Assembly: GCA_965198115.1 (NCBI GenBank)
Contig: OZ240241.1
Span: 6,304,001 to 6,368,000 of the forward strand
Direction: 5' to 3'
Length of the DNA: 64,000 nt
Source of the DNA: Candidatus Latescibacterota bacterium
Lineage (GTDB): Bacteria; Latescibacterota; UBA2968
Shown here: positions 1 to 48,142 of the stretch, piece by piece
Layout: the number at the start of each line of letters is the position of its first letter
How positions within the stretch are numbered: the first letter of the stretch is position 1
Position numbers and translations under genes: made by a program
The notes under the pieces: model-generated
What the model saw: only the letters and a program-made list of their open reading frames with translations
What the model was told of the DNA's origin: nothing
Database searches by the model: none

Positions 1-2028
1 CCCGCACCGAACGAAGATGCCCTGTACGACGGTGTTCGCAAGATTCCGTGGGAGGATCATCTCGACGTCGACGCCACACTGGTCGTCGATGCGCATACGG
101 TTCGATCGACCATCACACACTCCCATTTCGCGGCGTTGAAAGTGAAGGATGCTGTCGTCGATCGCCTACGCGATCGTTTCGGCCACCGGCCCTCCGTCGA
201 TCTGCAGGATCCCGATCTTCGAATCAATCTCTACCTCTATCAAAACGAAGCCACTGTCGCCATCGACCTGAGTGGCCACGGTCTCCACCGTCGCGGGTAT
301 CGTCAGGCGGGCCACGAGGCTCCGATTCGGGAGAATCTGGCGGCCGCGATCCTGATGCAGGCGGGATGGCCGGATATCGAGGGGCCGCTGCTCGACCCGA
401 TGTGCGGATCGGGGACCTTTCTGGTCGAGGGTGGGCTGATGGCGGCTGATGTGGCTCCGGGACTTTTGAGACAGCGATTCGGGTTCGAAGGATGGCTGAA
501 GCACGATGTTGGAGCTTGGAAACGTCTTCGAATCGAAGCGGAAGGGAAACGACGAACGATCGGACGTCCCATTGTCGGGTATGACGTGGATCCCGAGGCG
601 GTGGCTCTGGCGAAACGACACGCGTCCCGGGCCGGGTTGGGCGAGTTCATTCTAGTGGAGCAGCACGATTTGTCCTCGATGACCGATCTGGATTCGCAAG
701 TTCCCGGATTACTCGCGACGAATCCACCCTACGGAAAGCGGATGGGCGAGTTGGACGAGGTTCGTGGATTGTATGCCACGCTGGGGGAAAAGCTGAAGGA
801 GGGTTTTGCCGGATGGATGGTCGCGCTCTTTACGGGGAACTCGGAGCTCGGTTCGGCCGTGCGTTTGCGTCCGAGAAGATCTTACGTGTTCGACAATGGG
901 GGGATCGAGAGTAAGCTTCTGTTGTACAAGATGGATGCGAGACGCGGCCGAAGCTCTGCGGACAATTCTGGTGATGGTTTGGAATCCAAGCAGAGCGGAG
1001 CAGGCGAGAAGGCGAGCCCTTCGATACGCGACCTGCGGTCGCCACTCAGGACAGGCAGGCGTGGTGAGGTGGACTTCATCGCGAGGTCTTCTGCAGATGG
1101 TGTTGAGATGTTTGCGAATCGGTTGAGGAAGAACCTGCGGCATTTTGGGAAATGGGCTCGGCGACAGGGGATCGACTGTTTTCGGGTGTATGATGCGGAC
1201 CTTCCTGATTTTCCGTTCGCCGTCGATATCTACTCGGGATCCGACTGCCGTTGTGCACTCGTACAGGTTTACGAGGGGGAGCGGCTGGATGAGGGAAAGC
1301 TCGGCGCAGGGATCGAAGCGGTCGGAACCGAATTGGAGATTCCAGCGAACGACGTGATCATGAAGAGGCGGCGGAGACAACGGGGGGATGCCCAGTACGA
1401 TCGCGTGGCGAATGAGGTCCGCGAAGTGGTCGTGGAGGAAGGACCGGCTCGTTTCTGCGTGAACCTGACGGATTACGTCGATACAGGTCTGTTCCTGGAC
1501 AACCGGATGGTGCGGGATCTCATCAGGAACAGGGCAGACGGTGTTCGATTCCTGAATCTGTTCGGCTACACGGGGACCGCGTCGGTTCACGCGGCTCTGG
1601 GTGGCGCCGTTTCGACGACGACGGTCGATCTGTCGAACACCTATCTGGATTGGGCGCGACGAAACCTGTCGCTGAACGGGTTCGACGATGACGCGCACGG
1701 ATTCGTCCGCGCAGACTGTCTCACGTGGCCACAATCGGCGATGGAACGATACGATCTGATCTATCTGGATCCGCCGACATTCTCGAACTCGAAGGCGATG
1801 GATGTGTCGTTCGACGTTCAGCGTGACCACGTGGATCTGATCGAACAAAGCCTGCGACTGTTGTCCGATCGCGGAACGCTTCTCTTTTCCTGCAATCGGA
1901 ACCGTTTCGAGTTGAAGATGGAGGCACGAGAAGGGCTACGGATACAGAATCTGTCGGGGGCGACGCTACCGAAGGATTTCGAACGGCGGCGGGCGTATCA
2001 TCACTGTTATGTGCTCAAGAAGGCGTAG
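1..2028 (+). CDS. rlmKL: Bifunctional 23S rRNA m2G2445/m7G2069 methyltransferase RlmKL (5' end outside window)
   Basis: Frame is open from base 1 (PAPNEDALYDGVRKIPWEDHL...). Motifs: LHRRGYR, APIRENLAAA, DPMCGSGT, NPPYG, FANRLRKN, DTGLFLD, NLFGYTG, DPPTFSNSK. Confidence 0.95.
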   Translation, partial: PAPNEDALYDGVRKIPWEDHLDVDATLVVDAHTVRSTITHSHFAALKVKDAVVDRLRDRFGHRPSVDLQDPDLRINLYLYQNEATVAIDLSGHGLHRRGYRQAGHEAPIRENLAAAILMQAGWPDIEGPLLDPMCGSGTFLVEGGLMAADVAPGLLRQRFGFEGWLKHDVGAWKRLRIEAEGKRRTIGRPIVGYDVDPEAVALAKRHASRAGLGEFILVEQHDLSSMTDLDSQVPGLLATNPPYGKRMGELDEVRGLYATLGEKLKEGFAGWMVALFTGNSELGSAVRLRPRRSYVFDNGGIESKLLLYKMDARRGRSSADNSGDGLESKQSGAGEKASPSIRDLRSPLRTGRRGEVDFIARSSADGVEMFANRLRKNLRHFGKWARRQGIDCFRVYDADLPDFPFAVDIYSGSDCRCALVQVYEGERLDEGKLGAGIEAVGTELEIPANDVIMKRRRRQRGDAQYDRVANEVREVVVEEGPARFCVNLTDYVDTGLFLDNRMVRDLIRNRADGVRFLNLFGYTGTASVHAALGGAVSTTTVDLSNTYLDWARRNLSLNGFDDDAHGFVRADCLTWPQSAMERYDLIYLDPPTFSNSKAMDVSFDVQRDHVDLIEQSLRLLSDRGTLLFSCNRNRFELKMEAREGLRIQNLSGATLPKDFERRRAYHHCYVLKKA

Positions 2029-30906: not shown

Positions 30907-31756
30907 TTAGTTGTCGCAAAAGAGGTGGGCAAGGAGGATGTCCTGCTCTCGGTATTCGGGAATGATGTAGTCAGCGCCCGCGTCGACGAGTCGGTTGCGC
31001 TTCCATTCATCGATTCCCTTTCGGGTCACCTCGTTCGAGGCGACGCCAACCGCCGTTCCTCCGACCTGTGAGACATTTTCGATTTCGACATATCCGTCGC
31101 CGAACCCGATCAGATGGGCGCCCGCGAGATCCGGTGCGAGCATCTCCTGGATGAGTTTTGCTTTTGAGAATTTTTTGTAGTCGTCGAGTGCCCCGAAGAT
31201 CCGGTTGCCGAAGAAAGGGGCGATCCCGAGGAGATGGGCTTCCTCGACGACGTATGCGTGATCCGTACCGCTCGCTAGGTAGAGATTCAGACCGCGTTCG
31301 GTCAGCGCCTTCAGGAGACGGCGGCTCTCCGGTACGAGCATGTCATCCGGATCGATCGCGCCGCTTTTCAGCCCCTCGATTCGACGTTCGATGTGGGTGA
31401 GGAGGCGGTCGTGGTATTTTTCCTTATAAGTCGCGGGGTCTTGAGGACGACCCCCACGAGAAGCGATTTCTTCGGTCAGGCGGATCATCTGGTAGATGGT
31501 CTGCTGCCCGGTGAGCGCATCGACGAAGTCGGCTACGACTTCCTCTAAGTGGGACTGGGATTCGTCGGTCCCCAGTTCGGAGAGAATGTCGACCATCATG
31601 GGCACCATGATGCTGCGCCCAACCTTCTCGGATGAGCGAAATCGTTCCGTCGAAATCGAAGATCGCGTATCGGTAGTCGCCGGTTGGAAGGTGATCGGAT
31701 ATCGCTTCAATCTGCCGGCTACCAGCCAGCCGTTTGGGCACGAGTGCACACTCCAT
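30907..31756 (-). CDS. HAD-family phosphatase (frameshift near 31620)
   Basis: FDFDGTISLIREGW (motif I), LASGT, FSK, FGDGYVEIE. Confidence 0.85.
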
Positions 31757-31930
31757 TTTTTCGCAGAATTAGAGAGGAATAGAGGGATGAGGGTGGTGAA
31801 AGTCAAGGTCTTCCTCCGTGTTTCAGGCGTGCTCTGGAAGGCCGAATGCGCCGATATGGCTTGAAAAACGTGCCCCGAAGCGTATATTGAGCAGTCCCGC
31901 GGACGAGCTCTTTCACATCCGAGACCATTC

Positions 31931-32584
31931 ATGTCGAACACGTCGCGAATCCTGATCGATCAGGATTCGTCACGGAAAAAAGAGCTCTGTCTTTACGAGG
32001 TCGAGGGTTCGGCCTACGAGGTTACTTGCGACGGACAGCTTTTTCGCGGGTCGACCGACGAGCAATGCGCAACCCTGGCCATGGAGACGATCCACGGCCT
32101 CCTCGGGAGCAGGAACCAGATCGACCTCCTGATCGGAGGCCTCGGATTCGGCGCGTCACTCACGCGTAGTCTTGACGAGAGCGGCCTGCGATCGGTCACC
32201 GTCGTGGAGCCCGAGTATCGGATGCTCGATTGGGCTCGTCGCCACTTGAGTCTCTCTACCGTGTTGGACGATCGGCGGGTGGAACTCGTCGAAGGGGCTT
32301 TCGAGGTGTTTGTCAGGGCATCGCCCCAAAGCTACCACGGTATTCTGATCGACTTCGACCGGGGGCCGGCCAACGCTATCCTGGACTCGAATCGACGCGC
32401 CTACAGCGTAACGATGCTCGATCTGCTGGCGCGGCGTCTCAGGGCGGACGGGATCCTGGCCGTTTGCACGGATGAGGAAGACACGGGATATCGGCGCGCG
32501 CTGGCTGAGGTCTTCACGGAGGTCGGGTCGCGCCCTGTTGGAAATCAAACACCCGGTCGAATGATTCATTTCGGCCGTTCGTAA
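31931..32584 (+). CDS. Spermidine-synthase-like SAM-binding protein
   Basis: LIGGLGFGASL, VTVVEPE, IDFDRGP. Confidence 0.75.
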   Translation: MSNTSRILIDQDSSRKKELCLYEVEGSAYEVTCDGQLFRGSTDEQCATLAMETIHGLLGSRNQIDLLIGGLGFGASLTRSLDESGLRSVTVVEPEYRMLDWARRHLSLSTVLDDRRVELVEGAFEVFVRASPQSYHGILIDFDRGPANAILDSNRRAYSVTMLDLLARRLRADGILAVCTDEEDTGYRRALAEVFTEVGSRPVGNQTPGRMIHFGRS

Positions 32585-33998: not shown

Positions 33999-34098
33999 AC
34001 GGAAACACAGCCACTGAGAACACGGAGGGGCCTCGGACCTTAACGACCAGGCCCTATCGGGAACAGGAGCGTAGGAGAACTCTGGCTACGTTGTGGAA

Positions 34099-34138
34099 GG
34101 GCGCGTTCTTGAGGTTACGAGAGCGCGCCGTTCTCTTT
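34099..34138 (+). terminator. Probable terminator after gltA
   Basis: GGCGCGTTCT/AGAGCGCGCC stem followed by TTCTCTTT. Confidence 0.5.
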
Positions 34139-34143
34139 GGTTG

Positions 34144-34181
34144 TTGACACCAACACGCTTTAAGGTGTATAGTCACTTATT
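34144..34181 (+). promoter_or_regulatory. Sigma70 promoter for a probably leaderless marR, with an overlapping imperfect dyad
   Basis: TTGACA 34144-34149, 18 bp spacer, TATAGT 34168-34173, ATG 8 nt later, no SD. Confidence 0.65.
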
Positions 34182-34631
34182 ATGAGGGCGAGCAAGCGCC
34201 ATCGATTTCTGAATTGCACGTGTTACCATCTCAGGATGGCTACGAGAACGGTCACCCAGTACTACGACAATCGGCTGCGTCCGTCGGGTCTCCGGGGCAC
34301 ACAGTTTACCGTCCTAGCTGCGGTGGGGGAAGTTGGCCCAGTCCCCATCACGAACTTGGCCCGCGAGCTGATGATGGATCGGACCACGTTGACTCGAGAC
34401 ATCAAGCCCCTGCAGAAACGGGGTCTTATCGATGTGACAGAAGGTTCGGACCGCCGTGTGCGACTCCTCGCATTGAGCGAGGACGGACAGAGAGCGCTCG
34501 ATGCTGCAGTTCCCCTTTGGGAAGCTGCCCAGGAAGAAATCTACCAATCACTGGGTAAAAAGACCTGGAAGCGACTCATGGGTGATCTGGATCAAACGGC
34601 TTTGAAGGCTGCATCGAGTAAATCAGTTTAA
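34182..34631 (+). CDS. MarR-family regulator
   Basis: CTCYHLRMATR, GLRGTQF, MDRTTLTR, DRRVRLLALSEDG. Confidence 0.92.
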   Translation: MRASKRHRFLNCTCYHLRMATRTVTQYYDNRLRPSGLRGTQFTVLAAVGEVGPVPITNLARELMMDRTTLTRDIKPLQKRGLIDVTEGSDRRVRLLALSEDGQRALDAAVPLWEAAQEEIYQSLGKKTWKRLMGDLDQTALKAASSKSV

Positions 34632-34791
34632 CGCAGTGCAGGATCGGCAGTCGCAATACGGGGATGGTCCGGGATTAGAGTGTAGATACACTAAGATGCG
34701 GTTGGCAGATGCCTTGGGCGTCGTGGGGTTGAGAAGGGGGTCCGGATGGTGTCTATTCAAGCCGAATGCCGACCCCACAATAGGATTTACC

Positions 34792-35148
34792 GTGAGGAAG
34801 TCTATTTCAATTCTGTCCGTTACTTTCGCTGTCCTGGCGATGACGGCTTTTAGCGTTCAGTGCTTCTGCCCGGCCGTGTCTGTCAAGGTGGTCGACGCGA
34901 CGTGCCATGCCGAGCAGTCTTCGTCCTGTTGTTGCAGCACGGATGTCGAGCAGAGCACAGCGACGAGTAGCTTGCCGTTTGTCGGATCCACTCAGGAGGT
35001 GCCGAACGGACCCTCCCTTTTGCTTATGCCAGAGCGTGTTGGCGCGCTCGCGCTACACATCCAAACGGTTCTTCCCAGAAGCATTGCGGTCTCCGCCGGT
35101 CGAAACGCTTCCCTGCTTTACCTCTCGCATCAAGCCTTCCTGATCTGA
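34792..35148 (+). CDS. Cys-rich membrane-anchored leader protein upstream of the cus operon (start uncertain)
   Basis: N-terminal hydrophobic helix, CFC, CH, CCC, C-terminal LYLSHQAFLI. Confidence 0.65.
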   Translation: MRKSISILSVTFAVLAMTAFSVQCFCPAVSVKVVDATCHAEQSSSCCCSTDVEQSTATSSLPFVGSTQEVPNGPSLLLMPERVGALALHIQTVLPRSIAVSAGRNASLLYLSHQAFLI

Positions 35149-35300
35149 TCGTCCTTCCGGGTACTTCTATGCCCAACCGGAGAAGTCTGTACGCGATCCG
35201 GCGCTCTGAGGGTGACGCGTCGCGTCATTCCACATTCGTTCGATCCATTCCATCGATTTCCTGTAAACGGATCCGTCTACGTGACGGAGAGGAGTTCGTC

Positions 35301-36608
35301 GTGCGCATTCGATTTTGGACGCTCGCGCTGTTGGTATTGCCGGTGGTGTCGACGGTTCAGGGCGATACCCTGGACCTCGATGTTCTGATCGAGGAGGCGC
35401 TTCGCGAGAACCTGTCTCTCCGCGCCTTCGAACATCGCGTCGCGGCCTTCGCGGCACGCGTGCCTCGCGCCGGAGCATTGGAAGATCCAGTCGTCAGTCT
35501 CGAAGCCAGGAATCTACCTGTATCCCGGTTCGACTTCGACAGCACGCCGATGTCTGGCAAGATGATTTCGGTGAATCAGACTGTCCCCCTGCCCGGTCTG
35601 CTTCGCGCAAGGACGACGGTTGCGCGCAATGAGGCCGATGAGGTGGGGGCCGGCCTGGAAGACCGAAGGCGGATGATCGTCAAGCAGGTCAAGCAGACTT
35701 ACTTCGAGCTGGATTTCCTGGATCGTGCGATCGATCTGACACGAGAAAACCAGAGACTCCTGGACGATGTAGGCGCGATCGCCGAACGGCAGTACGCGGT
35801 CGGCAAGGGCATCCAGGCGGACCCTCTGAGGATTCGTGTCGCACGTGGGATGGTCGCCGACCGACTGCTCGAGCTAGAAGCCTCGCGAAGAACCGCAGCT
35901 TCGCGTCTGAGTCTGATTCTCAACAGGGAACCGGACTCGTCTATCGGCCCTATCCCGCCGTGGACGCCCCGGAAGCAGACCTGGCCTTTTGGTGAACTCG
36001 TGAGCATTGCTCTGGAACACCGCGGACGATTGATCGCACTCGGTCACGCAAAGGCTCGCTGGGAGGCTGAAACAGACGCGGCTCGTCGCGAATCCTGGCC
36101 GGGGGTTCGACTTGGTGTGGGTTACGTTCAGCGAACGGCAGCGCTCGGGGATCCGGCTCAGGGAGCCGACTTCCTCACCTTTCGAGCCGCGTTCACGATT
36201 CCTCTTTACAAAGGACGAAAACAAAAACAGAAGGAAATCGAAGCCCAACAGCGCTTACTGGAGAAAACGTCAGAATGGGACTGGGAATTGAAGCAGCTTC
36301 GTCAGGAAATTCAGGATAAGATCGTCAGGATGGAACAGCACCACGGCCAGCACGTGCTTTTCGAGGAGACCGTTCTGCCCCAGTCTGAAATGGCGATGTC
36401 TTCCGTGCTGTCCGCGTACCGCGTCGGGCGCGCCGATCTGAGCGCGGTGCTGGAAGCGCAATCGGCGCTGTTGAAATCGGAATTGATGAACCACCACCAT
36501 CGGGTCACGCACGCCAGAGTTATGGCGGAACTAGAGTTCACGGTCGGCGCCGACCTGACCCGATTCGAAGCCGGCGCGGATGGTTCTACGAGAGGAGAGG
36601 GAGAATGA
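35301..36608 (+). CDS. TolC-family outer membrane factor (CusC-like)
   Basis: GAGGAG RBS, signal peptide, ALRENLSL, GALEDP, VKQTYFEL, YRVGRAD. Confidence 0.88.
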   Translation: MRIRFWTLALLVLPVVSTVQGDTLDLDVLIEEALRENLSLRAFEHRVAAFAARVPRAGALEDPVVSLEARNLPVSRFDFDSTPMSGKMISVNQTVPLPGLLRARTTVARNEADEVGAGLEDRRRMIVKQVKQTYFELDFLDRAIDLTRENQRLLDDVGAIAERQYAVGKGIQADPLRIRVARGMVADRLLELEASRRTAASRLSLILNREPDSSIGPIPPWTPRKQTWPFGELVSIALEHRGRLIALGHAKARWEAETDAARRESWPGVRLGVGYVQRTAALGDPAQGADFLTFRAAFTIPLYKGRKQKQKEIEAQQRLLEKTSEWDWELKQLRQEIQDKIVRMEQHHGQHVLFEETVLPQSEMAMSSVLSAYRVGRADLSAVLEAQSALLKSELMNHHHRVTHARVMAELEFTVGADLTRFEAGADGSTRGEGE

Positions 36609-37942
36609 CTCGCACTGGATGGCTCGCGGCGATTGCCGCGTTGGTGCTCGCCGGAGTTGGAGGCTGGGTCCTGCGTGGGTCCGCACCCACGCCCGTGGTG
36701 ATGGTTGATGAGCACGATCACGCCGAGGACGTCGACTATTACACCTGTCCGATGCACCCTTCAGTCAAGGCGCAGGAGCCCGGTGCGTGCCCGATCTGTG
36801 GCATGGACCTGACGCCAGTTCCGAAGCTGAGAACAGAAGCAGGACAAGGTGAAGATGGAATAGCATCCGTGCCCGGTATGTCTGCCCCGGGGTCACGACC
36901 GAGGGTGGACTTCATCAAGGTAACGCCGTATCAGCAGCAGTTGATCGGGGTGACCGTTGGTGAAGTGACAGAGCAGTCCGCAAAGACGGAGGTCAGAACG
37001 ATCGGGCGCGTTGTCTACGACGAGACCCGTTTGACGGACGTTAATCTTAAGGTATCGGGGTGGATCCAGGATCTTTATGTGGATCATGTTGGCAAGTCCG
37101 TCCGGAAGGGTGAGCCCCTGTTCACCCTTTACAGTCCCGAGCTCGTTGCCAGCCAGGAAGAATATCTCCTGGCTTACGAGGGGCTGCGCAGAGTTCAGGC
37201 GCCGGCTCTGCAGGACTCGGAATCGCCCGAAGGTGAGTCCGCGGTCTGGAGCGAACGGCTTCTTCAGTCTGCACGGGAACGCCTCGAGTTGTGGGATCTG
37301 ACGGACAGGCAGATTCGGGAACTGGAGTCCACCGGGAAGCGCAGCAGGGCCGTGACGGTCTACGCGCCCTCGGATGGGATCGTGACGGAGCGGATGGCGG
37401 TCTCCGGTATGTTCGTGAAACCGGACATGCGGCTCTACAGGATTGCGCGATTAGACTCGGTGTGGATCAGGGTAGACGTCTACGAGCAGGAGCTGCCATT
37501 CGTTCACGCGGGACAGCCCGCGACGATCTCTCTCTCTTATCTGCCCGAAGCGTCCTTGGAAGGCACGGTGGATTACGTCTACCCGTATCTGGACCCCAAG
37601 ACGCTGACTGCCACGGTACGCGTTCGTGTATCGAACCCGGACGGAGCGCTCAAGCCCGGCATGTTCGCGAACGTACTTCTGCATCGGTCCGAGGACACCC
37701 GGCTGCTCGTCCCGGAAGCCGCCGTCCTCTTTTCCGGACGCCGCCGGATCGTGTTTCTGGCGCTTGGCGACGGGCGGTTTCAGCCACGTGAAGTTTCTCT
37801 CGGCCGGCAATTTCGGTCAGGCTACGAAGTGATCGCCGGGCTTCGATCGGGTGATCGTGTGGTGACATCGGCCAACTTCCTGCTCGATTCGGAGAGCAAG
37901 TTGAAGAATGTGACGGCAGCCGTGCTGCCGACCGAATCGTAA
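36605..37942 (+). CDS. cusB: RND membrane fusion protein with a heavy-metal-binding domain
   Basis: YTCPMHP...PGACPICGMDL, YSPELVASQEEY, LKPGMF, ANFLLDSES. Confidence 0.92.
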   Translation: MTRTGWLAAIAALVLAGVGGWVLRGSAPTPVVMVDEHDHAEDVDYYTCPMHPSVKAQEPGACPICGMDLTPVPKLRTEAGQGEDGIASVPGMSAPGSRPRVDFIKVTPYQQQLIGVTVGEVTEQSAKTEVRTIGRVVYDETRLTDVNLKVSGWIQDLYVDHVGKSVRKGEPLFTLYSPELVASQEEYLLAYEGLRRVQAPALQDSESPEGESAVWSERLLQSARERLELWDLTDRQIRELESTGKRSRAVTVYAPSDGIVTERMAVSGMFVKPDMRLYRIARLDSVWIRVDVYEQELPFVHAGQPATISLSYLPEASLEGTVDYVYPYLDPKTLTATVRVRVSNPDGALKPGMFANVLLHRSEDTRLLVPEAAVLFSGRRRIVFLALGDGRFQPREVSLGRQFRSGYEVIAGLRSGDRVVTSANFLLDSESKLKNVTAAVLPTES

Positions 37943-37951
37943 GAGAACGCC

Positions 37952-40900
37952 ATGATCGAGAAAATCATCGAATACAGCGCTCGGAACCGGATGATGATCA
38001 TCATCCTGGTACTTTTCGGCGCCACGTGGGGTGGATGGGCGCTGCGGAACGTTCCGCTCGATGCCATTCCGGATCTGTCGGACGTGCAGGTCATCGTGTT
38101 CACAGAATGGCCGGGTCGGAGTCCAGATCTGATCGAGGACCAGATCACCTATCCCGTGATTACGACGATTCTGGCCGCGCCGAAGGTGAAGTTCGTACGG
38201 GGGCAGTCGTTTTTCGGACTGTCGTTCGTCTACGTGATCTTCGAGGATGGCACGGACATGTACTGGGCGCGAAGCCGCGTTCTGGAGTTTCTGAACGAAG
38301 TGACCGGACAGTTGCCCGAAGGCGTGACGCCGTCGCTCGGCCCGGATGCGACGGGCGTAGGCTGGGTGTATCAGTACGCGTTGGTCGACACGACCGGACA
38401 GAACAGCCTGGCAGACCTTCGGAGCTTCCAGGACTGGTCCCTGAAATACTGGCTCGAGAGTGTCCCCGGCGTAGCGGAGGTCGCATCGGTCGGCGGATAT
38501 GTGAAGCAGTATCAGGTCAATCTGGTTCCGAACAAGCTCCTGGCGTACAACCTGCCGATCAGCGCGATTATCCACGCGATTCGCCAGAGCAACAATGACG
38601 TGGGTGGCCGTGTGATCGAGATTGCTGGGACCGAGCACATGATCCGGGGTCGGGGATACATCGAGTCGGTCGGAGACCTCGAGCAGATTCCCCTCGGTTC
38701 GAACGCCGACGGTACGCCCATTTACCTGCGGGATGTGGCTCAAGTTCAGATTGGTCCGGACATGCGTCGCGGTCTGGCGGAGCTCGACGGCAAGGGCGAG
38801 ACTGTGGGCGGCGTGATCGTGATGCGCTACGGAGAGAACGCTCTCAGTGTGATCGACCGGGTGAAGGAGCGTCTGAAGGAGGTCGAACCTTCACTGCCAG
38901 AAGGCGTTCGGGTCGTGACGACGTATGACCGCTCGGACCTGATTCTGCGGGCGATCGACGTGCTCAAGCGCGGACTGACCGAGGAGATGCTTGTCGTCGC
39001 GATCGTGATCGTGATCTTTCTGTTGCACATTCGAAGCGCTCTGATTCCCATCATTACGCTGCCCATCGCGGTCCTCATGTCTTTCGTCCCCATGTACTAC
39101 ATGGGGTTGACTTCGAACATCATGTCGTTGGGAGGTATCGCGATCGCGATCGGCGCGATGGTGGACGCCGCTGTGGTGTTGGTGGAGAACGCACATAAAC
39201 ATCTGGACCGATGGTCCATCGATCAGTCCCGCTCTACGGTCGGGCCTACTCGGGATGAAAGAATCGAAATCATCATTCGTTCCGCGAAGGAAGTGGGCAA
39301 ACCGATCTTCTACTCCCTGTTGATCATCGCGGTTTCGTTCGTGCCGGTGTTCACGCTCGAGGCGCAGGAGGGACGGCTGTTCAAGCCGCTCGCCTTCACG
39401 AAGAACTTCGCGATGTTCTTCGCGGCGATCCTGGCGATCACGTTGGCGCCGGCGCTGATGGGACTCTTGATCCGGGGCCGCATTCACTCCGAAGAGAAAC
39501 ATCCGATCAGTCGGGCGCTGATCTGGCTCTATGGACCGGTGATCACCCTGGTCCTTCGATTCAAGAAGAGCGTCATCGGGATCGCGATGGTGGCTCTTGC
39601 GCTGACGGCCCTCCCTTTCGGGCAACTCGCGTCGGAGTTCATGCCGCCCCTGGATGAAGGGAGTATTCTCTACATGCCGACGTCGCTGCCCGGTATGTCT
39701 ATCACGGAAGCGAAGAAAGTGCTGCACGCTCAGGACAAACTTCTGGTTCAGTTTCCGGAAGTGGAGCGTGTGTTCGGAAAGGTCGGACGCGCTCGAACCG
39801 CCACGGACCCCGCTCCGCTTTCGATGGTGGAAACGACGATTACACTCAGACCCCGTTCGGAATGGCGGGACGGGATGACCTGGGACAAGCTGGTCAAGGA
39901 GATGGACTCAGTGCTGAAATTTCCCGGTATGCCCAACATCTGGTGGATGCCGATCCAGACCCGCACCGAGATGCTGGCGACGGGGATCCGAAGCCCGATC
40001 GGCATCAAAGTCTTCGGGCCAGACCTGGAGACAATCGAAAAGGTGGCCCTGGACATCGAGAGAGCCGTCCGGGATGTCCCCGGAACACGAAGCGCGTTCG
40101 CGGAACGCGTGACCGGTGGGAATTTTGTGGATTTCGTCGTGCGGCGGGGGGAGGCAGCAAGGTATGGTCTTCAGGTCGAACAGGTCGAGCAGATCATACA
40201 GACGGCCATTGGAGGCCTGAACATCGATCAGACGGTCGAGGGTCGGGAACGTTACCCGATCAGCGTTCGCTACGCCAGGGAGTTGCGTGACAACTTGGAT
40301 GACCTCAGGCGCGTCCTGGTACCTACACCCACTGGGACACACGTACCGATCGCCCAGCTCGTGGACATCCAGACGGTGACCGGGCCGCCGATGATCCGTG
40401 ATGAGTCGGCACAGCTGGTGGGATTCGTGTTCGTGGATATCGTGGATCGTCCCCTGGGCGAGTATGTGGCCGAGGCGCAGCAGGTGGTTTTGGACAGGGT
40501 CGACATCCCGGCGGGGTATCGCATCGCGTGGGGCGGTCAGTTTCAGTATATGGAACGGGCCAGAGAGAAGCTCATGCTCGTGGTGCCTCTGACGCTTTTC
40601 ATCGTGTTCTTCCTGCTCTACATGAACTTTAATTCGATCGCGGAAACGTTGATCGTCATGCTGTCGGTGCCTTTCGCGCTCGTAGGTGGTGTGTGGTTGC
40701 TCTATTTGCTCGACTACAATCTTTCCGTGGCAGTGTGGGTTGGGATTATTGCACTGGTCGGCGTGGCCGCCGAAACGGGCGTGGTCATGCTGGTCTACCT
40801 GGATGAAGCGTGGGAACGGAGGGTCAGCGAAGGAAAGACGTCTTTCGCCGATCTTCGCGAGGCGGTGGTAGAAGGGGCGGTCCAGCGCGTCCGGCCCAAG

Positions 40901-41549
40901 ATCATGACCGTGGGGACGACGATCATCGGTCTACTCCCGATCATGCTCGGGACGGGAACGGGTTCGGATGTGATGAAACGCATCGCCGCGCCGATGGTGG
41001 GTGGACTGGTCTCGTCAACTATTCTGACGTTGGCCATCATCCCAGCGATCTATGTCATCTGGAAGGGACGGGGGCTGGCGAAGGAAGAAGAGGCTGGAAC
41101 GCCGCTGCCGTCGTGGGCGCGGTTCGTATTGATCACTACCGGGCTCGTCGTGGCTCTCTCGGGGGTACACTTCCTGTCGGGATTATCCGATACCTCCCCG
41201 GGCGGACCGCAGGCGGTGATCACGACGGTTCAGAGCGGTAGTGTCGAAATTTCCGTTTCCGGAGCCGACGGGAGGATGGTGTCGGGAAAGAACCGGCTGA
41301 GTCTTTCCTTCACGGACGCGGCGACGGGGGTCTCCGCCGACGTTCAGGGCGTTGCTTTGGAACTGTTCATGCCCGCCATGGGGGGGGCGATGGCGCCTAT
41401 GCAGAGCGAGGCCGACATCACGTCCCTGGACGCACCGGCCGATTCTTGGCCGACATCGAAGTTCAGATGCTGGTGAGTGGCAAGTCACAGTCAGGTTTTC
41501 GGGGCCCGGAATCGACGGAAAACGAACGTTTGCCGTTACTGCGCAGTGA
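37952..41549 (+). CDS. cusA: CusA/SilA Cu(I)/Ag(I) RND transporter with a C-terminal YtkA/FixH-like extension (frameshifts in the last ~120 nt)
   Basis: LDAIPDLSDVQVI, GAMVDAA, EFMPPLDEG, TDPAPLSMVET, RTEML, AAETGVVM, RVRPKIMT; tail LFMPAMG...GEWQVTV. Confidence 0.93.
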
Positions 41550-41592
41550 TTTGAAAACCCAGGATTGAGAGGATCAGGACATCCACGGCGAT

Positions 41593-41655
41593 TTGACATT
41601 GGAGATCGAAGACAGTATTATAACCGCTCACTTGAACAAGTGTTCAAGTGAGCGG
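41593..41655 (+). promoter_or_regulatory. Sigma70 promoter plus a perfect 15-2-15 ArsR/SmtB-type operator
   Basis: TTGACA 41593-41598, 17 bp spacer, TATTAT 41616-41621; CCGCTCACTTGAACA-AG-TGTTCAAGTGAGCGG at 41624-41655. Confidence 0.85.
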
Positions 41656-41742
41656 GAGAACTGGCGAGCCCATTGGTTGTAGGCGCTCGCGGCAGGATTG
41701 GGCAGTCATTGTTCCAGCCTGCTCGAGTCATCATTTGCTACT

Positions 41743-42147
41743 ATGAGAAGAGTGAACAGTAAGGGCATAGGTCTTCTGCTGACCGCGACGATGTTGATCG
41801 CTACCCATCTCTCGATGGGTGGACGTGTCATCTGTGTGGGACCCGACGGCCACGTCGCGATCGAGGCTTCCGATTGGCGTGGGACCTGTGCGGACTCCAA
41901 TCCTAAGGATTTGCTTTCGTGTTCTTTGATCCCTTCTACGCACTGCGGTACGTGCCTCGATTTTGAAATTACAATCGATCGGGCTCCGAAGGTCGGGGGT
42001 AAGACCATCGAGCTACCAGTTCTATCCCGCGCCGATCTTATTGTGCCCTTGGCGTCCATCATCCCATTCAAACGTCTATCGCACCTACCTCCCACCAGCC
42101 ATATCCCTCCAGGTCATCTGGCTCAGAACGCCGTTCTGATCATCTGA
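41743..42147 (+). CDS. Cys/His-rich membrane-anchored leader protein upstream of the czc operon
   Basis: N-terminal hydrophobic helix, CVGPDGHVAIE, HCGTCLD, C-terminal HLAQNAVLII. Confidence 0.7.
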   Translation: MRRVNSKGIGLLLTATMLIATHLSMGGRVICVGPDGHVAIEASDWRGTCADSNPKDLLSCSLIPSTHCGTCLDFEITIDRAPKVGGKTIELPVLSRADLIVPLASIIPFKRLSHLPPTSHIPPGHLAQNAVLII

Positions 42148-42230
42148 CACTTCCTGATCCTCACGGGTTGTCGTAGTTCGCAGCAGCGCCCTCCGCGCTC
42201 TGCCAGATTCCGTGTATCAGGAGGCGTTTT

Positions 42231-43426
42231 ATGTACACCGCTCTCAATCTGTTGACAGGTCTCATTCTCGCCGTGTGGTTCACTCAGGCCAAGACGGCGT
42301 CTGCCCAGGTGCTGACTCGGTCCGAGGTCGTGCGGATCGCCTTGGCTGATAACCCAAGGGTTTCCGCCGCGAGGGCCGCGTGGGATGCGGCGAAAGCCCA
42401 GCGACTGGTCTCGCTGGCTCTGGAAGATCCGAGAGAAATATCGGAATCACGCAAAGAATCGAGTCGCCTCTGAAGTGGTGGTTTCGCCAACGCGCTTCCG
42501 GTCAACGGGCGGAAGCCGTGCACTTCTCGACTTTCGAGGCGACACGTCTGGACATTGAAGTCGAAGCAAAAACGATCTTCGACCGCGTGCTGGCCGATCA
42601 GGCGATCTTCGCCGCTTCTGAAGAGAATCTTCGGCTTGCTCGGGACCTTGCTTTCAAGGCTCGTAGTCGATTCGAGGCGGGAGATGTCGCCCGCCTGGAG
42701 GTGATGCGGACCGAAGTCCAGGTTGGCCTTGCGGAAATCGCGCGGACCGATGCGGAGGCCAGGTCAACCACGTCGAAAGCCTCTTTGAATACCATCCTGG
42801 GAAGAGAAGTCACTGCGCCTACCGTGATTACGGGCGAACTCACCCTGGAGCCTGCCTCCTTCGAACTCGCCTGTCTGAAGCACCGGTCCTCAATCCAGCG
42901 ACCCGATCTGAATGGTGCTCGCCAGTTGCTGATGAGCCTACGATCGGCGAAATCTGGCACGGTCGTGTCCCTGGTTCCCGATCTGAGCCTTGGCTTTTCG
43001 CGGCAGACGATCGCGGGTCCTGGTGGAAGGTCGTCTTTCTGGCGGACCACACTCGGGATCGAGATACCCGTGTGGGCGCCGTTTCGGCAGCGAGGAGAGG
43101 TAAGTGCTGCCGCCGCGGAGGTTCGACAGGCTGAGGCCAACTACGAGGGTCTCGAGCAGAAGGCTATGCTGGAAGTGGAGTCGAGTCTTTCGGCGCTTAC
43201 GGCCGCCCAAAAGCGAGCGGCGGTGTTCAAGACCGGCGTGCTAAGATTGGCGGAGGCGGCATACGACGCGGCGTCCGAAAGCTATCGACAGGGTAAGGCA
43301 ACGTATCTGGAGCTTCTGGAAGCACAGAAGACTCTTACCGAGACCCGGATCGCCTATTTCGAATCGATCTTCGACTACCGGCGTGCGTTGGCTGAGCTGG
43401 AACGGGCGACAGGAGGATCACTGTGA
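42231..43426 (+). pseudogene. czcC: CzcC-like TolC protein, frameshift/deletion near 42430
   Basis: AGGAGG RBS; signal peptide and ALADNP in 42231-42473; the remainder (RFEAGDVARLE, YRQGKATYLELL) is in another frame. Confidence 0.75.
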
Positions 43427-44718
43427 TGCGAATCAGCGAGCGGAAGAATTGGACATGGAAGACGACCTGGTGGGGTCTTCTACTGGGCGGACTGGCGGTC
43501 TGCTTTGTGACTGCTCACGTCGCCGCCCAACCCGAGGAGCATAACGACCACGGGGAAGACGTTCACGAAGAGGAACGGTCCGTGCATCTGAGCGCGGTGG
43601 AAATCGAGGAATTCGGAATCCGACTGTCTCGTGCAGAAGCGGGCGTGATCGGACCTATCATCGAACTAGCAGGAGAGATCGTGGCCAACCCGGACCGGTT
43701 CGCTCACGTCGTGCCACGCGTGGGTGGCATCGTGAGGCGCGTCGAGGCAAGTCTCGGGGACCACGTTAAAGCTGGAGCTGTGATGGCGACCACCGATAGT
43801 CGAGAGCTTTCCGATCTGAAATCAGCTTATCTGGCCGCGGTCGAAAGACGCGAATTGGCCAGAGCTGCTTTCGAGCGTGAGGAGCGGCTGTGGAAACAGA
43901 ATATTTCGTCCGAACGCGATTTCCTCGAGGCGAAGCAGTCATTCGCCGAAGTACGCATTGAAGCACGGTCGGCGGAGCATAAGCTCCACGCACTCGGGTT
44001 CTCGGAGGCGTATCTGAAAACACTTCCCCGCCAGCCGGATGTTTCGTTCACAGAGTTCGAGATTCGAGCCCCTTTCGATGGTGTCGTCGTCAGCAAGCAT
44101 CTTGCACTCGGCGAATCGGTGGATGAGGATTCGGATGTTTTTTCGGTCACCGATTTGAGTCGAGTCTGGGCCATCCTCGCGGTGTATCAGAAGGATCTTA
44201 AATGGGTTGTCCACGGCATGCGTGTGGCGGTTCAGGACCGCGAAGGAGGGACCGAACGCTCCGAGGGTAAGATTTCGTATGTGAGTCCCGTTATCGACGA
44301 GACGACCCGTAAGGCGAGCGTTCGGGTTGTTCTGGACAATCAGAGCGGAGCCTGGAGGCCCGGGATGTTCGTGAGAGGACGCATCGTGACGGAAGGGCAT
44401 TCGGTTGCAGTGGCGGTGCCGCGAACGGCGGTGCAGCAGCTCGACGGAGAGGACGTCGTTTTCGTCCACGACGGTACGGAGTTCGAGGCGCGCGATGTTC
44501 AAACAGGCAGAGCAGCGGGGGATCTGATTGAGATTGTGACCGGCTTGGAGGCCGGGGAGACGATAGCAGTTCAAGGCGCGTTCACGCTCAAGACGCAGAT
44601 CGAGAAGGGTGAGTTCGAATCGGGCCACAGCCTGAAACCGAGGCGTCAGTGTTCAGAACACCGAACGGTCCTGTCCAGATCGCCTGGCGTTGTACTTTCC
44701 TGTGTGTTTGAATCCTAA
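43423..44718 (+). CDS. czcB: CzcB-like membrane fusion protein (C-terminus runs into unrelated sequence after about 44630)
   Basis: His-rich N-terminus, IRAPFDGVV, WRPGMFV, VPRTAVQ, GAFTLK. Confidence 0.85.
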   Translation: MMRISERKNWTWKTTWWGLLLGGLAVCFVTAHVAAQPEEHNDHGEDVHEEERSVHLSAVEIEEFGIRLSRAEAGVIGPIIELAGEIVANPDRFAHVVPRVGGIVRRVEASLGDHVKAGAVMATTDSRELSDLKSAYLAAVERRELARAAFEREERLWKQNISSERDFLEAKQSFAEVRIEARSAEHKLHALGFSEAYLKTLPRQPDVSFTEFEIRAPFDGVVVSKHLALGESVDEDSDVFSVTDLSRVWAILAVYQKDLKWVVHGMRVAVQDREGGTERSEGKISYVSPVIDETTRKASVRVVLDNQSGAWRPGMFVRGRIVTEGHSVAVAVPRTAVQQLDGEDVVFVHDGTEFEARDVQTGRAAGDLIEIVTGLEAGETIAVQGAFTLKTQIEKGEFESGHSLKPRRQCSEHRTVLSRSPGVVLSCVFES

Positions 44719-44754
44719 CGACTTCTAGGGCTGACACGTAAGTCGCACTGTAGA

Positions 44755-47700
44755 ATGAACCGGCTGCTCGTTCTTGTGCTGGGTGTGCTTATGGCTGGCG
44801 CCGGGTACTACAGTTATGTACAGCTCCCTGTTGATGCTTTCCCCGACGTGTCTCCGAATCTGGTGCAGGTGTTCACGGAGACGGAGGGACTGGCGCCTGA
44901 GGAGATCGAGAAGTTCGTGACCTACCCGATCGAGACCGCGATGAACGGATTGCCCGGCGTCGTCAACGTTCGCTCGGTTTCCAACTTCGGGTTGTCCGTC
45001 GTGAACGTGTATTTCGAAGACGGAATGGACATTTACTTTGTCAGGCAACTCGTGAACGAACGTCTGCAGGAAGCGCGGGAGCAGATCCCTGAAGGGTTCG
45101 GCGATCCGACAATTGGCCCGATTTCAACGGGCATGGGGCTGATCCTGTTCTACTACTTGGAGGACCAGACGGGAACGCGAAGTCTCGAGGAATTGAGGAC
45201 GATCCAGGACTGGCTCGTCAAGTTTCACCTCCAGACCGTCCCGGGCGTGACGGAGGTCCTGGGAATCGGTGGTTACGAAAAGCAGTACCAAGGTCGTGAT
45301 CGATCCGGACGCTTTGGTTCAATATGACGTGACGATCCAGGAGGTCATCGAGAGGGTTCGGGCGAACAACCTGAACGTGGGCGCCCAGTTCATCGAAAAA
45401 GATGCCGAGGAGTATGTCGTTCGTTCCGTGGGTTGGCATCCACGATCGAGGATATCCGGGGGATCGTGATCAATGCGGTGGACGGTACACCCGTGTATCT
45501 CAATCAGCTTGCAGAGGTAAGGGTGGGAGGCGCCATTCGGCGCGGTGTGCAGACGCACGATGGGGTCGGGGAGGTGGTAGCCGGGATGGTGGTCAAGCTG
45601 TTCGGTACGAACTCCTCCACGGTGATCGAGCGCGTGGAGGCAAAGATGATGGAGATCAACCGGATCCTGCCCGAAGGTGTGAAAATCGTTCCCTACTACG
45701 AGCAGAAGGAGTTGGTGGCCGAGTGTGTGGCCACTGTCACGGACGCTCTTGTAGAAGGTATCGTCCTTGTGACGTTGGTCCTGTTCGCTTTCCTGGGGGC
45801 CCCTTCGACCCAGCCTGGTGGTAGCTCTTGCGATCCCGTTTTCTGTTCGCGACGCTTGGAATGGGTGCCTTCGGGATTTCCGCGAATCTGATGTCCCTGG
45901 GTGGCCTCGCTATCGCTATCGCTATCGGGCTACTCGTGGACGGTTCCATCGTCATCGTGGAGAACGTCGATCGACAGCTGCGGGAGGCCGGTCCAGAGGA
46001 ACCGCGTGGTGGCCAGGGCCTGCACGGAGGTCGGACGGCCGATCGCGTTCTCTCTCATCATCATCATCATCGTATTCGTGCCGCTGTTTACGCTCCAGGG
46101 CGTGGAAGGAAAGACCTTTCGTCCGCTTGCCTACACGGTTTCCCTGGCTATGCTGGGGTCGCTTGTCTTCGCGCTGTTCCTGTCTCCCGTTCTGTCCCAT
46201 CTGATGATGCGCCCGCCGAACGGGTCGCGTCGTGGGGAGCACGAGGAGGGTCGGGTGCTGCGGTGGCTGATCGAAACCTACCGGCCCATGGTCACGTTTT
46301 TCGTATTCCGTCGCCGGCTGGCGGTCGCAGCCGCAGTAGTCCTGGTTGCGTTCGGGGCGACGATCTTCCCGCTCCTCGGATCGGAATTCACGCCCTCTCT
46401 GCAGGAAGGGTCTATGGTGCTTCGCCTGACGATGGCTCCGTCGATTTCCCTGAGAGAGAGCACCCGGATCACACTTCTCGTGGAGCGGCGTCTCATGAAG
46501 TTGCCGGAGGTCACGGGGGCCGTGACCCGCATCGGCCGCGGTGAGATCGGGGCGCATACGGACCCCATCAACAGCGCCGAGATTTACGTGCTTCTCGAGC
46601 CTCGGGAGGCGTGGCGCACCGCGGAGACTCAAGACGACCTGGAGGACGTCATTCGGCAGGAGCTGGGGGACATCCCGGGGGTTTTGACGAATTTCACACA
46701 GCCGATCGCGATGACAGTGGACGAGCTTCTGGAGGGCGTGCGCGCCGAACTGGCGGTGAAGCTGTTCGGCGACGATCTGGATCTGATGAAGGAGAAGGCG
46801 GACGAGATCGCCGCGGTGGTGCGCACGGTCCGGGGCGCTGCGGACGTCCAGGTGGACCAGGTCGGGGGGACGCCGCAACTTCTCATCCGGGTGGATCGGC
46901 AGGCGATCGCCCGCTACGGGATCAACGTTGAGGATGTGCAGCAGGTCATTCGTGCCGCCGTGGGGGGTGAAACAGCCGGACAGATCTTCGAGGGTGTCCG
47001 CCGATTCGACATTCTGGTGCGATTCGCTGAACCGTATCGGAATACGCCTGATGCGATCGGCCAGATTCTCGTGCAGGCGCCCGATGGGGTTCGGGTTCCA
47101 CTGGCACAGATCGCACGGATCGAGGAGATCGTTGGTCAGCGTCAGATTACGAGGGAGAACAACCAGCGGTTCATCACGGTGCAGTGTAACGTCACAGACC
47201 GGGACATTGTGTCGTTCGTGGAGGAGGCTCAGGAAGCCATTGATGCCAGCGTGAGTCTGCCTTCCGGCTACCTGGTGACGTGGGGCGGGCAATTCCGACT
47301 GCAGCAGGAGGCCAACCGGCGGCTGGCCCTGGTCGTGCCCATCACCCTGCTGGTCATCTTTCTGCTGCTGTTTTCGAGCTTCAACTCCTTGAAGAGCTCC
47401 ATTCTTGTCCTTCTCAATATTCCGTTGGCCCTGGTCGGTGGTGTGGTGGGTCTTTGGCTGACCGGGCAGAACCTGTCCGTTCCCGCGTCTGTGGGTTTTA
47501 TCGCGTTGTTCGGCATCGCGTTGGCCAACGGGATGGTTCTCGTTACCTACCTGAACCAGCTTCTGCACGACGGCGTGGCTCTGGACGAGGCGTCGATTCG
47601 GGGCGCGTGCCTGCGCGTGCGTCCGGTGCTGATGACGGCATTGGCGGCGGCGCTGGGTTTGATTCCACTGTTGTTTTCCACCGGTACGGGCAGGGAGGTC

Positions 47701-47835
47701 CAGCGTCCACTTGCCACGGTTGTGGTGGGTGGACTAGTGACTTCGACAGCTTTGACGCTGCTTGTGATTCCGGCGCTCTACAAGTGGTTCGCAACTTCCC
47801 CCAAACACGAATCGGCCGCCTTGGTCGCCGATTGA
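44755..47835 (+). pseudogene. czcA: CzcA-like divalent-metal RND transporter with several frameshifts in 45290-46010
   Basis: LPVDAFPDVSP, GLLVDGSIVIVEN, EGKTFRPLA, VGFIALFGIA, RVRPVLMT, EVQRPLATVV; the first ~10 codons are missing. Confidence 0.85.
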
Positions 47836-47877
47836 AGGGAGGAATGACAAGAAACAGGAAAAGGATAAATTGGACGC

Positions 47878-47908
47878 TTGACCCTGTACCTCAGTACAGG
47901 GTTATCTT
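47878..47908 (+). promoter_or_regulatory. MerR-type promoter/operator
   Basis: TTGACC, 19 bp spacer, TATCTT; dyad ACCCTGTAC-CTCA-GTACAGGGT at 47881-47902. Confidence 0.88.
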
Positions 47909-47927
47909 TAGAGGAAGGAGGAACCAG

Positions 47928-48017
47928 ATGGGGCTCAGGACCGGGGATCTTGCGAAGTTGGCTCAGGTCAATACCCAGACTCTCAGGTATTACGAGCGGA
48001 GAAGATTGCTGCCTTAG
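47928..48017 (+). pseudogene. merR: merR N-terminal fragment (29 aa)
   Basis: AAGGAGG RBS; MGLRTGDLAKLAQVNTQTLRYYERRRLLP, then a stop at the IS junction. Confidence 0.8.
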
Positions 48018-48142
48018 TGCATGGGTTCATAAATATTATTACGTATGTCCTGAACATTATTTGTAGCTTATGTTCTCCTTCAAAAGGAGGAGAACAATGC
48101 CAAGACGTTCGCCTTATGTGGTGCTACTGTCTGAGAAGGAGA
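48015..48142 (+). mobile_element. IS630-like left-end remnant
   Basis: Begins at a TA; AT-rich; AGGAGG RBS followed by MPRRSPYVVLLSEKE at 48097, resembling IS630 transposase N-termini. Confidence 0.55.

Follow-up and report, generated by a model that had tools for sequence, protein, structure and literature searches.

Two operons for metal efflux pumps of the resistance-nodulation-division (RND) type, one cus-like and one czc-like, are encoded on a 64,000-nt stretch of DNA from a Candidatus Latescibacterota bacterium (GenBank assembly GCA_965198115.1, contig OZ240241.1, positions 6,304,001 to 6,368,000), and each of them begins with a small Cys/His-rich open reading frame (ORF). What these two ORFs are, and what they do for the pump genes behind them, is the question raised by this locus. 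The whole stretch is referred to as the window, all coordinates are positions within it, and the source genome is the genome carrying it. To our knowledge, the known metal-sensing leaders, CruR and CutF, depend on proline motifs. As judged from their sequences, both ORFs belong to conserved families of leader genes, and 3′ of the czc-type leader stops lies a strand that pairs specifically with the ribosome binding site (RBS) of its own locus. The reading preferred here, at a probability of roughly 0.55, is that both leaders would act in cis as metal-sensing translation switches, in which metal lengthens a pause at a C-terminal LI-stop tail, the anti-RBS strand is covered and the pump is translated. 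The features on which the argument draws are given below (SD, Shine-Dalgarno sequence).

34792..35148, + strand: cus leader ORF, 118 aa, with hydrophobic anchor, CxC..CH..CCC head, linker of ~70 residues and LYLSHQAFLI-stop
35149..35160, + strand: pyrimidine-rich strand 3′ of the cus leader stop, generic anti-SD or rut-like
35273..35287, + strand: local hairpin just 5′ of the cusC SD core, rival to the cus helix proposed earlier
35301..36608, + strand: cusC-like outer-membrane factor (OEP), RBS at 35285-35293
41743..42147, + strand: czc leader ORF, 134 aa, with anchor, CxGxDGH..HCxxCxD head, linker of 63 residues and LAQNAVLII-stop
42150..42166, + strand: anti-RBS strand, from 3 nt past the czc leader stop (CTTCCTGAT, then CACGG)
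42210..42224, + strand: czcC RBS strand (CCGTG, ATCAGGAGG), which the predicted helix would sequester
42231..43426, + strand: czcC-like outer-membrane factor with a frameshift near 42410-42430

The cus leader starts with GTG, carries Cys at residues 24, 26, 38 and 46-48 and His at residue 39, and ends with TGA; the czc leader starts with ATG, carries C31xGxDGH37 and H67C68xxC71, and likewise ends with TGA. A hydrophobic N-terminal stretch is found in both (KD17 maxima of 2.0 for cus and 1.7 for czc, hydropathy only), and the two ORFs with anchor and Cys/His cluster, as given in a preliminary description of this DNA, were confirmed. From leader stop to start codon, the spacer measures 152 nt for cusC and 83 nt for czcC. 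According to Pfam and NCBIfam, the genes 3′ of both leaders encode an OEP, an adaptor and a CusA/CzcA-family RND protein. The second RND of the window is the nearer to Cupriavidus metallidurans CzcA (39.7% vs 34.5%); the first carries Met residues in three motifs, which we take to be the CusA Met triad.

Homologue searches with either single leader sequence returned only the ORFs themselves, and profiles built from genomic context were needed. Among 30 cusC loci, obtained from 41 related genomes with the window included, a cus-type leader (CxC..CH..CCC together with (P/S)xLYLx[HN]xxFLI-stop) stands 5′ of cusC in 28; one of the two leaderless loci is interrupted by low-complexity sequence, and the other has no such ORF in the 480 nt examined. 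A CxxxDGH..HCxxCxD leader was present in 7 of the 7 best CzcC-like loci. Profile matches were obtained in 53 of 168 phylum genomes for the cus leader and in 32 of 168 for the czc leader, and no further member of either family was found in the source genome. The czc leader profile led to 1,568 clusters at 50% identity, all without annotation, the best 150 of which were used for counts of tail, spacing and prolines. No family in Pfam or NCBIfam was found for either leader; in the ESM Atlas the nearest clusters are unnamed, and the nearest named ones, DUF8199, DUF2946 (23% of members) and DUF6769, are leads only. In profile comparison, the two heads prove unrelated (hhalign probability 2.8%).

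What the two leaders share is the extreme C-terminus, and the earlier observation of similar ends on otherwise dissimilar proteins was borne out. When scored on the czc-family tail matrix, the cus tail ranks in the top 0.05% of 5,647 long-ORF ends of the source genome, and on the cus-family matrix the czc tail is among the top 0.6%; in the proteins P0078 and P0083, a czc-type head is joined to a cus-type tail. The czc-type tail shows L at position -3 in 139 of 150 proteins, L at -2 in 119, I at -1 in 104 and R at -7 in 89. A loose form of the tail is kept at the C-terminus in 141 of the 150, and 108 of the 109 carriers of the core motif have exactly one further residue to the end, 41 proteins being without the strict core. 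A conserved motif flush with the stop, as known from termination-arrest peptides, is thus present. Its codons vary synonymously, which places the conservation at the amino-acid level and ruled out the tail as an RNA element.

The DNA pattern LRT[VTI][VI]LLI-TGA, used alone, gave 76 matches among genome contigs, 61 of which are leader-like ORFs with anchor and Cys/His residues (one shortened by a contig end, some near-duplicates) and 15 short chance frames. Directly 3′ of 41 of the 61 leaders lie RND-system genes (36 OEP, 4 adaptor, 1 RND), vs none for the 13 chance matches with a downstream ORF to scan. Conservation of the C-terminal LI-stop near RND metal operons, which the preliminary description had named as a check, is therefore seen in the czc-type proteins, in the cusC loci and in this tail-only scan. 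Record titles of the tail-only matches include Desulfobulbaceae, Phycisphaerae, Verrucomicrobia, Poribacteria, Nitrospirota, Eisenbacteria, Myxococcota and Hydrogenedentota. The czc head profile is not matched by 21 of 56 dereplicated tail-only leaders, so the tail is carried on several heads. A corresponding cus-tail pattern gave 36 metagenome matches, 21 of them leader-like, which are followed by 12 OEP, 1 RND, 1 HMA, 3 NosL-like, 1 YtkA and 1 ferric reductase gene and 2 genes without family.

The genes 3′ of the remaining LRTxVLLI leaders encode PCuAC (one), DsbB (L128, L146, L166), TPR (L139, L144, L148), DUF2231 (L147) and GAF (L133) proteins; 9 of the 61 precede genes without family and 2 have no gene in hand. 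The records with DsbB and TPR genes are of Desulfobacterota type, and these neighbours hint at redox or disulfide sensing by the Cys head. In the Verrucomicrobia leaders L095, L096, L147, L151 and L164, His-rich, Cys-poor heads are placed on the LRTxVLLI tail; the genes 3′ of them show no clear SD, so that a different output must apply. An exported protein of ~140 aa without Pfam family is encoded 3′ of the leader in L114, L153 and L159 (Desulfobacterota-type or proteobacterial), and the NosL-like domains behind the cus-tail leaders L225, L234 and L237 belong to lipoproteins.

The distance from head to stop is held within narrow limits. In the window, 63 residues (czc) and 70 residues (cus, CCC) separate the last Cys motif from the stop; the czc-type median from CxxC to the end is 69 (5-95%: 62-71; n=131 of 150), the cus-type CCC-to-end distance is 69-73 in 45 of 47 homologues (family median 72-73), and in 36 of 40 tail-only leaders with a Cys pair the distance is 60-75, the last 60 residues of the tail-only leaders being nearly free of Cys. 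About 70 residues is roughly the span of exit tunnel plus membrane. As had been noted, RAPP is absent from both ORFs, yet PP stands at -13/-12 in the window czc leader and RSPP at -15..-12 in many orthologues of the cus leader; the window cus leader contains no PP anywhere. PP within the last 15 residues was counted in 16 of 150 czc-type proteins and in 15 of 28 cus loci, and a RAPP-like motif in 3 of the 150. Heads also segregate with pumps: a CzcA-like RND follows 12 of 12 czc-type leaders and a CusA-like RND 8 of 8 cus-type leaders, in 20 loci which were chosen by hand and are partly circular, as 4 of the 8 cus-type loci came from the CusC search. CusR or CzcR above cut-off was not found in the source genome, and the 46 chosen flanking ORFs of the 20 loci, whose upstream flanks are short, comprise one MarR and no two-component gene.

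At the RNA level, the czc strand 42150-42158 pairs with 42216-42224 over 9 bp with one G-U, with a probability of 0.89-1.0 in each of three folding windows. A z of -2.47 was obtained for the fold of the region, pairing to the czcC RBS of equal strength occurs in 0.02% of 5,000 random genome windows, and the CACGG/CCGTG extension is present in the minimum free energy structure; the czc helix is therefore predicted as it had been proposed, including its extension. For a test of own vs swapped partners, the 25 nt from the stop were paired with the RBS of the same locus and with that of every other locus. The czc-type set comprised 29 phylum and 52 tail-only loci, dereplicated to 70, after 15 chance matches, 7 duplicates, 2 loci without downstream gene and 1 frameshifted leader had been dropped beforehand. 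The own RBS was preferred by -2.85 kcal/mol (p<5e-5, n=70), with values of -0.6 to +0.1 in five control windows and +0.19 (p=0.75, n=100) for ordinary gene pairs of the source genome. The preference persists in each GC tertile (p<=0.001) and after removal of the window's clade, and the paired sequences are unlike among loci (e.g. L092, L093, L098, L140 and L158), which points to repeated selection. A three-sequence RNAalifold run gave one compensatory pair in the SD helix, from too few sequences to count. With a ribosome mask placed at the window czc stop, the opening energy of the RBS falls from 15.1 to 9.6 kcal/mol; a mask at the stop lowers it by at least 2 kcal/mol in 33 of 67 czc-type loci, vs 9 of 67 when the mask is placed upstream and 7 of 52 among ordinary pairs.

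The switch we propose would proceed as follows. Each leader would be exported co-translationally by the Sec pathway, and at ~70 residues the Cys/His head would just have entered the periplasm as the stop codon reaches the A site. Metal bound by the head, presumably Cu/Ag for the CCC head and Zn/Co/Cd for the DGH-HCxxC head, would then keep the ribosome at the stop for longer. In czc-type loci the paused ribosome would cover the anti-RBS strand, melt the helix and free the pump RBS. The same pause may occur in the window cus operon, where the output could be a weak generic anti-SD pairing or the shielding of a C-rich Rho site. The mechanism rests on the ORFs, their families, the flush tail, the ~70-residue spacing, the co-segregation of head and pump and, for the czc type, the complementarity of the first ~20 nt past the stop to the RBS of the same locus.

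Several results weigh against it. At the window cus locus, TCCTTCCG and CGGAGAGGA are complementary, as the preliminary description had stated, but the helix is not part of the predicted fold: its base pairs have a probability of 0-0.1, a z of +0.91 was obtained for the region, pairing with the cusC RBS as good as that of the cus strand is reached by 41% of random windows, and the CGG half is locked in the hairpin 35273-35287 (probability 0.99), of which a counterpart of similar sequence is seen by eye at the same position in the same-genus locus L021. A ribosome mask at the cus stop frees nothing (16.2 to 16.9 kcal/mol). The earlier proposal that a ribosome at the stop frees the RBS thus holds, in the masking model, for the czc-type class and not for the window cus locus. 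Across 19 cus orthologues, own-pairing reached p=0.06 and masking gave -1.11 vs -1.06 in the control, i.e. no specific effect, and alternative windows (0..15, 5..30, -20..5, -12..13) gave no specific pairing signal in them; for 12 tail-only cus loci own-pairing was p=0.0006, and for the pooled 29 cus loci p=0.003. The +1..+11 bases are 64-100% pyrimidine in 28 cus loci. Helix conservation, the lack of which had been named as refuting, is hence kept as pairing across the 70 czc-type loci and is weak among cus orthologues. In the czc-type class itself, masking has little effect in 34 of 67 loci (above -2 kcal/mol), some genes 3′ of the leaders have no SD, and the p-values are overstated because the loci are related to one another. 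TGA is the usual leader stop (37/41 and 23/29), but TAA and TAG occur as well, which ruled out a strict UGA/RF2 requirement. Leaders of the tail-only set are Pro-rich at -30..-10 (14-24% Pro), where proline-based slowing could still operate, and an RSPP-type motif, absent from the window's cus leader, is found in 11 of 28 cus loci, in which the known Pro-type stall could do the work. Lastly, the czcC gene has one frameshift and czcA at least four, with cusC, cusB and the cusA core intact; identical letters across 40873-48042 were found in contigs of sequencing run X1 (possibly the source sample), and one czcA break is spanned gap-free by a contig of a second sample, X3. The window's czc copy may be decaying or no longer acting, so that the evidence rests on the leader families.

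Among published systems, CutF of Rhodobacter capsulatus, encoded 5′ of cutO, is arrested at a C-terminal PPP that lies 45 residues from the metal motif (PMC9973294; see also bioRxiv 10.1101/2025.02.05.636593 for CutF as precedent of a metal-sensing leader). It resembles the window leaders as a small exported Cys-containing leader 5′ of a metal-detoxifying gene, with a stem that hides the downstream SD, a stem which is predicted here for czc and its family and not for the window cus locus. The window leader families differ by ~70 residues to the stop, by a Pro-free tail flush with it and by the lack of DUF2946. CutF-like leaders 5′ of CusC/CzcC-type OEP genes were published in a survey that required PP in the last 15 residues (PMC9973294). 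As is the rule for that CutF-like set, both window leaders are shorter than 150 aa and have a hydrophobic N-terminus, a Cys/His site and a same-strand gene within 1000 nt; the PP rule admits the czc leader, whereas the cus leader, having no PP, would fail the survey filter. The tail was not found in the text passages or three small supplements of PMC9973294, whose File S1 and Fig. S6 may show it.

CruR (Bp2923, a DUF2946 protein of Bordetella pertussis) undergoes RAPP elongation arrest at 45-residue spacing and switches an importer off via Rho (PMC9426467); the arrest was demonstrated in PMC12992588. A fixed spacing from metal motif to C-terminal motif and C-rich, G-poor RNA near the leader end are common to both, and Cys-based sensing by a nascent leader would be; the window leaders, on the other hand, have no RAPP, exporters lie 3′ of them and an RBS helix is present in the czc class. 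The ~45-residue CxxC spacing of CruR is not found here, where the distances are those given above (63 and 70 in the window). DUF2946 (PF11162) gave no match for either ORF or for 27 aligned members, and none in the source genome at E<=10.

Close in layout is HYC_CC_PP (NF047658), small proteins of Bacteroidota with CC at 69-75 residues from the end in 23 of 24 members examined and hydrophobic FLI, FLL, LII or LRV tails. On the HYC_CC_PP tail matrix, the window cus tail outscores all 5,647 long-ORF ends of the source genome; two of eight tested cus-tail leaders (L224, L228) are members above cut-off, and CusA-like or HMA-type genes lie 3′ of the members viewed. The window leaders differ in having no HYC motif and, for cus, no PP, and the model (28 bits) matched nothing in the source genome, neither leader and none of 27 aligned orthologues. 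Stop-codon arrest peptides ending in NSP-stop, NAP-stop or DGMK-stop (PMC10987492) and PepNL (PMC11890864) share the motif flush with the stop, and the first three have N-terminal localization signals; they differ in their motifs, precede secA/secDF or metabolic genes and carry no described metal head, and arrest with the stop in the A site, shown for them, is proposed for the leaders. The leaders likely work like CutF without being DUF2946 members, their tail being a candidate arrest motif. The earlier suggestion of a distinct arrest class was overstated, as CutF-like RND leaders are published, HYC_CC_PP shares cus tail and spacing, and the stretch ahead of the tail is Pro-rich. A literature description was not found for the tail (LRTVVLLI, RTVVLLI, xLI-stop), HYC_CC_PP, DUF8199 or PF26622, with subscription journals thinly covered, and DUF6769 gave only an unrelated match.

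Among the alternatives, plain translational coupling, in which any terminating ribosome opens the helix and the leader ties pump synthesis to export capacity without a metal-tuned pause, is unlikely. All of the RNA evidence requires merely a ribosome at the stop; the conserved tail residues, the ~70-residue Cys spacing and the match of head and pump are left unexplained by it.

Also unlikely is a pause that governs Rho-dependent termination, as in CruR or TnaC, instead of access to the RBS; the cus operon would be the prime case. In all three sets the RNA is richer in C than in G between about -60 and +15 relative to the stop (+1..+15: C 0.38-0.41, G 0.13-0.16; control 0.28/0.28), Rho is encoded in the source genome, neither spacer has an intrinsic terminator match, and the cus spacer of 152 nt is similar to the 162 nt of cruR-bfrG (PMC9426467). 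At fourfold-degenerate sites, however, czc-type leaders show a modest bias and cus leaders none (C 0.28, G 0.34), so that much of it stems from Pro, Ser and Leu codons, and the locus-specific RBS pairing of the czc class would remain without explanation.

Rather improbable is a role in trans, in which the leaders would be set free in the periplasm, bind metal there and influence the pump in the manner of CzcI, as quenchers or chaperones, with the tail as protease degron or docking tag. A nonpolar C-terminal tail can act as a degron, and an AlphaFold model of the czc-type member P0091 (mean pLDDT 67, pTM 0.35), without match in the PDB at E<=0.001, combines a small head of beta-sheet with a helix at the C-terminus. 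CzcI of Cupriavidus metallidurans (NF045614), too, is a small exported His/Cys protein encoded directly 5′ of czcCBA, and its description as a periplasmic quencher of CzcCBA (PMC10127602) is a further argument against the cis switch. Unlike the leaders, CzcI ends RAPDRPQWQRLA; the models NF045614 and NF045615 matched CzcI itself (control, 172 bits) and neither leader nor leader family. For a role in trans, a linker fixed at 70 residues would be needless, as would an anti-RBS strand at the stop, and the linker shows no sequence conservation (mean column identity 19%).

Least probable of the four, ordinary CutF-like leaders stalling at RSPP or PP, 12-15 residues from the C-terminus, with the LI tail secondary would fit the RSPP of most near homologues in one genus (R at -15 in 45/47), a permissive arrest variant (PMC12992588), the PP of the window czc leader and that ahead of the similar tail in HYC_CC_PP members, but fail on the PP-free window cus leader, on the rarity of PP and RAPP-like motifs beside a tail kept in nearly all czc-type proteins, and on the position of the anti-RBS strand, which a ribosome stalled 12-15 codons upstream would reach at most with its 3′ edge.

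Returning to the metal-tuned pause at the tail, a wider and tentative proposal is that LRTxVLLI-stop and LYLxHxxFLI-stop form one proline-independent termination-arrest module, placed at a fixed ~70 residues behind unrelated Cys/His heads. Such a module might be what chiefly switches RND pumps in response to periplasmic metal in Desulfobacterota, Planctomycetota, Verrucomicrobiota, Latescibacterota-like lineages and Bacteroidota (HYC_CC_PP), and might comprise a nascent-chain sensor of Zn/Co/Cd. Since published surveys were filtered on PP or RAPP, they would have passed over most of the LI-stop class. Should the tail prove to be an arrest motif, it would be a new termination-stage arrest sequence. 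A function would then be at hand for thousands of unannotated small genes, probably HYC_CC_PP too, nascent-chain sensing would extend to divalent-metal pumps, and metal control of RND pumps without an adjacent two-component system would be explained.

The further features of the two operons are listed here.

34729..34757, + strand: weak match to a sigma70-like promoter, 5′ of the cus leader (TTGAGA-17-TCTATT, 9/12), without match in the stricter scan
36605..37942, + strand: cusB-like adaptor with heavy-metal-binding domain (HMBD)
37952..41476, + strand: cusA-like RND with C-terminal extension, TIGR00914 above cut-off
41593..41621, + strand: match to a sigma70 promoter, near consensus, 5′ of the czc leader (TTGACA-17-TATTAT, 11/12)
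43423..44718, + strand: czcB-like adaptor
44755..47835, + strand: czcA-like RND, at least four frame changes between ~45290 and ~46010

A TTGACA-17 match lies 5′ of many cus leaders, and promoter matches of at least 10/12 were found in 9 of 27 cus loci vs 2% in shuffles. Rfam gave no match above gathering threshold within 34000-43000. A MarR gene (34182-34631) adjoins the cus leader on its 5′ side; it is also present in locus L301 and absent from the other scanned cus loci. The C-terminal extension of cusA (41100-41600) lies past an extra hydrophobic segment, has a Met-rich patch and may run on in another frame near 41460. A gene resembling a HAD-type hydrolase is seemingly split over two frames (31424-31756, 30907-31941), so that indels are not limited to czc. 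The short ORF 47927-48016, which ends at a stop and has no Pfam match at 1e-4, resembles by eye the N-terminal helix-turn-helix of MerR-type regulators. About 3 kb past the broken czc operon, ORF 50989-52239 resembles, by eye, an IS256-type transposase.

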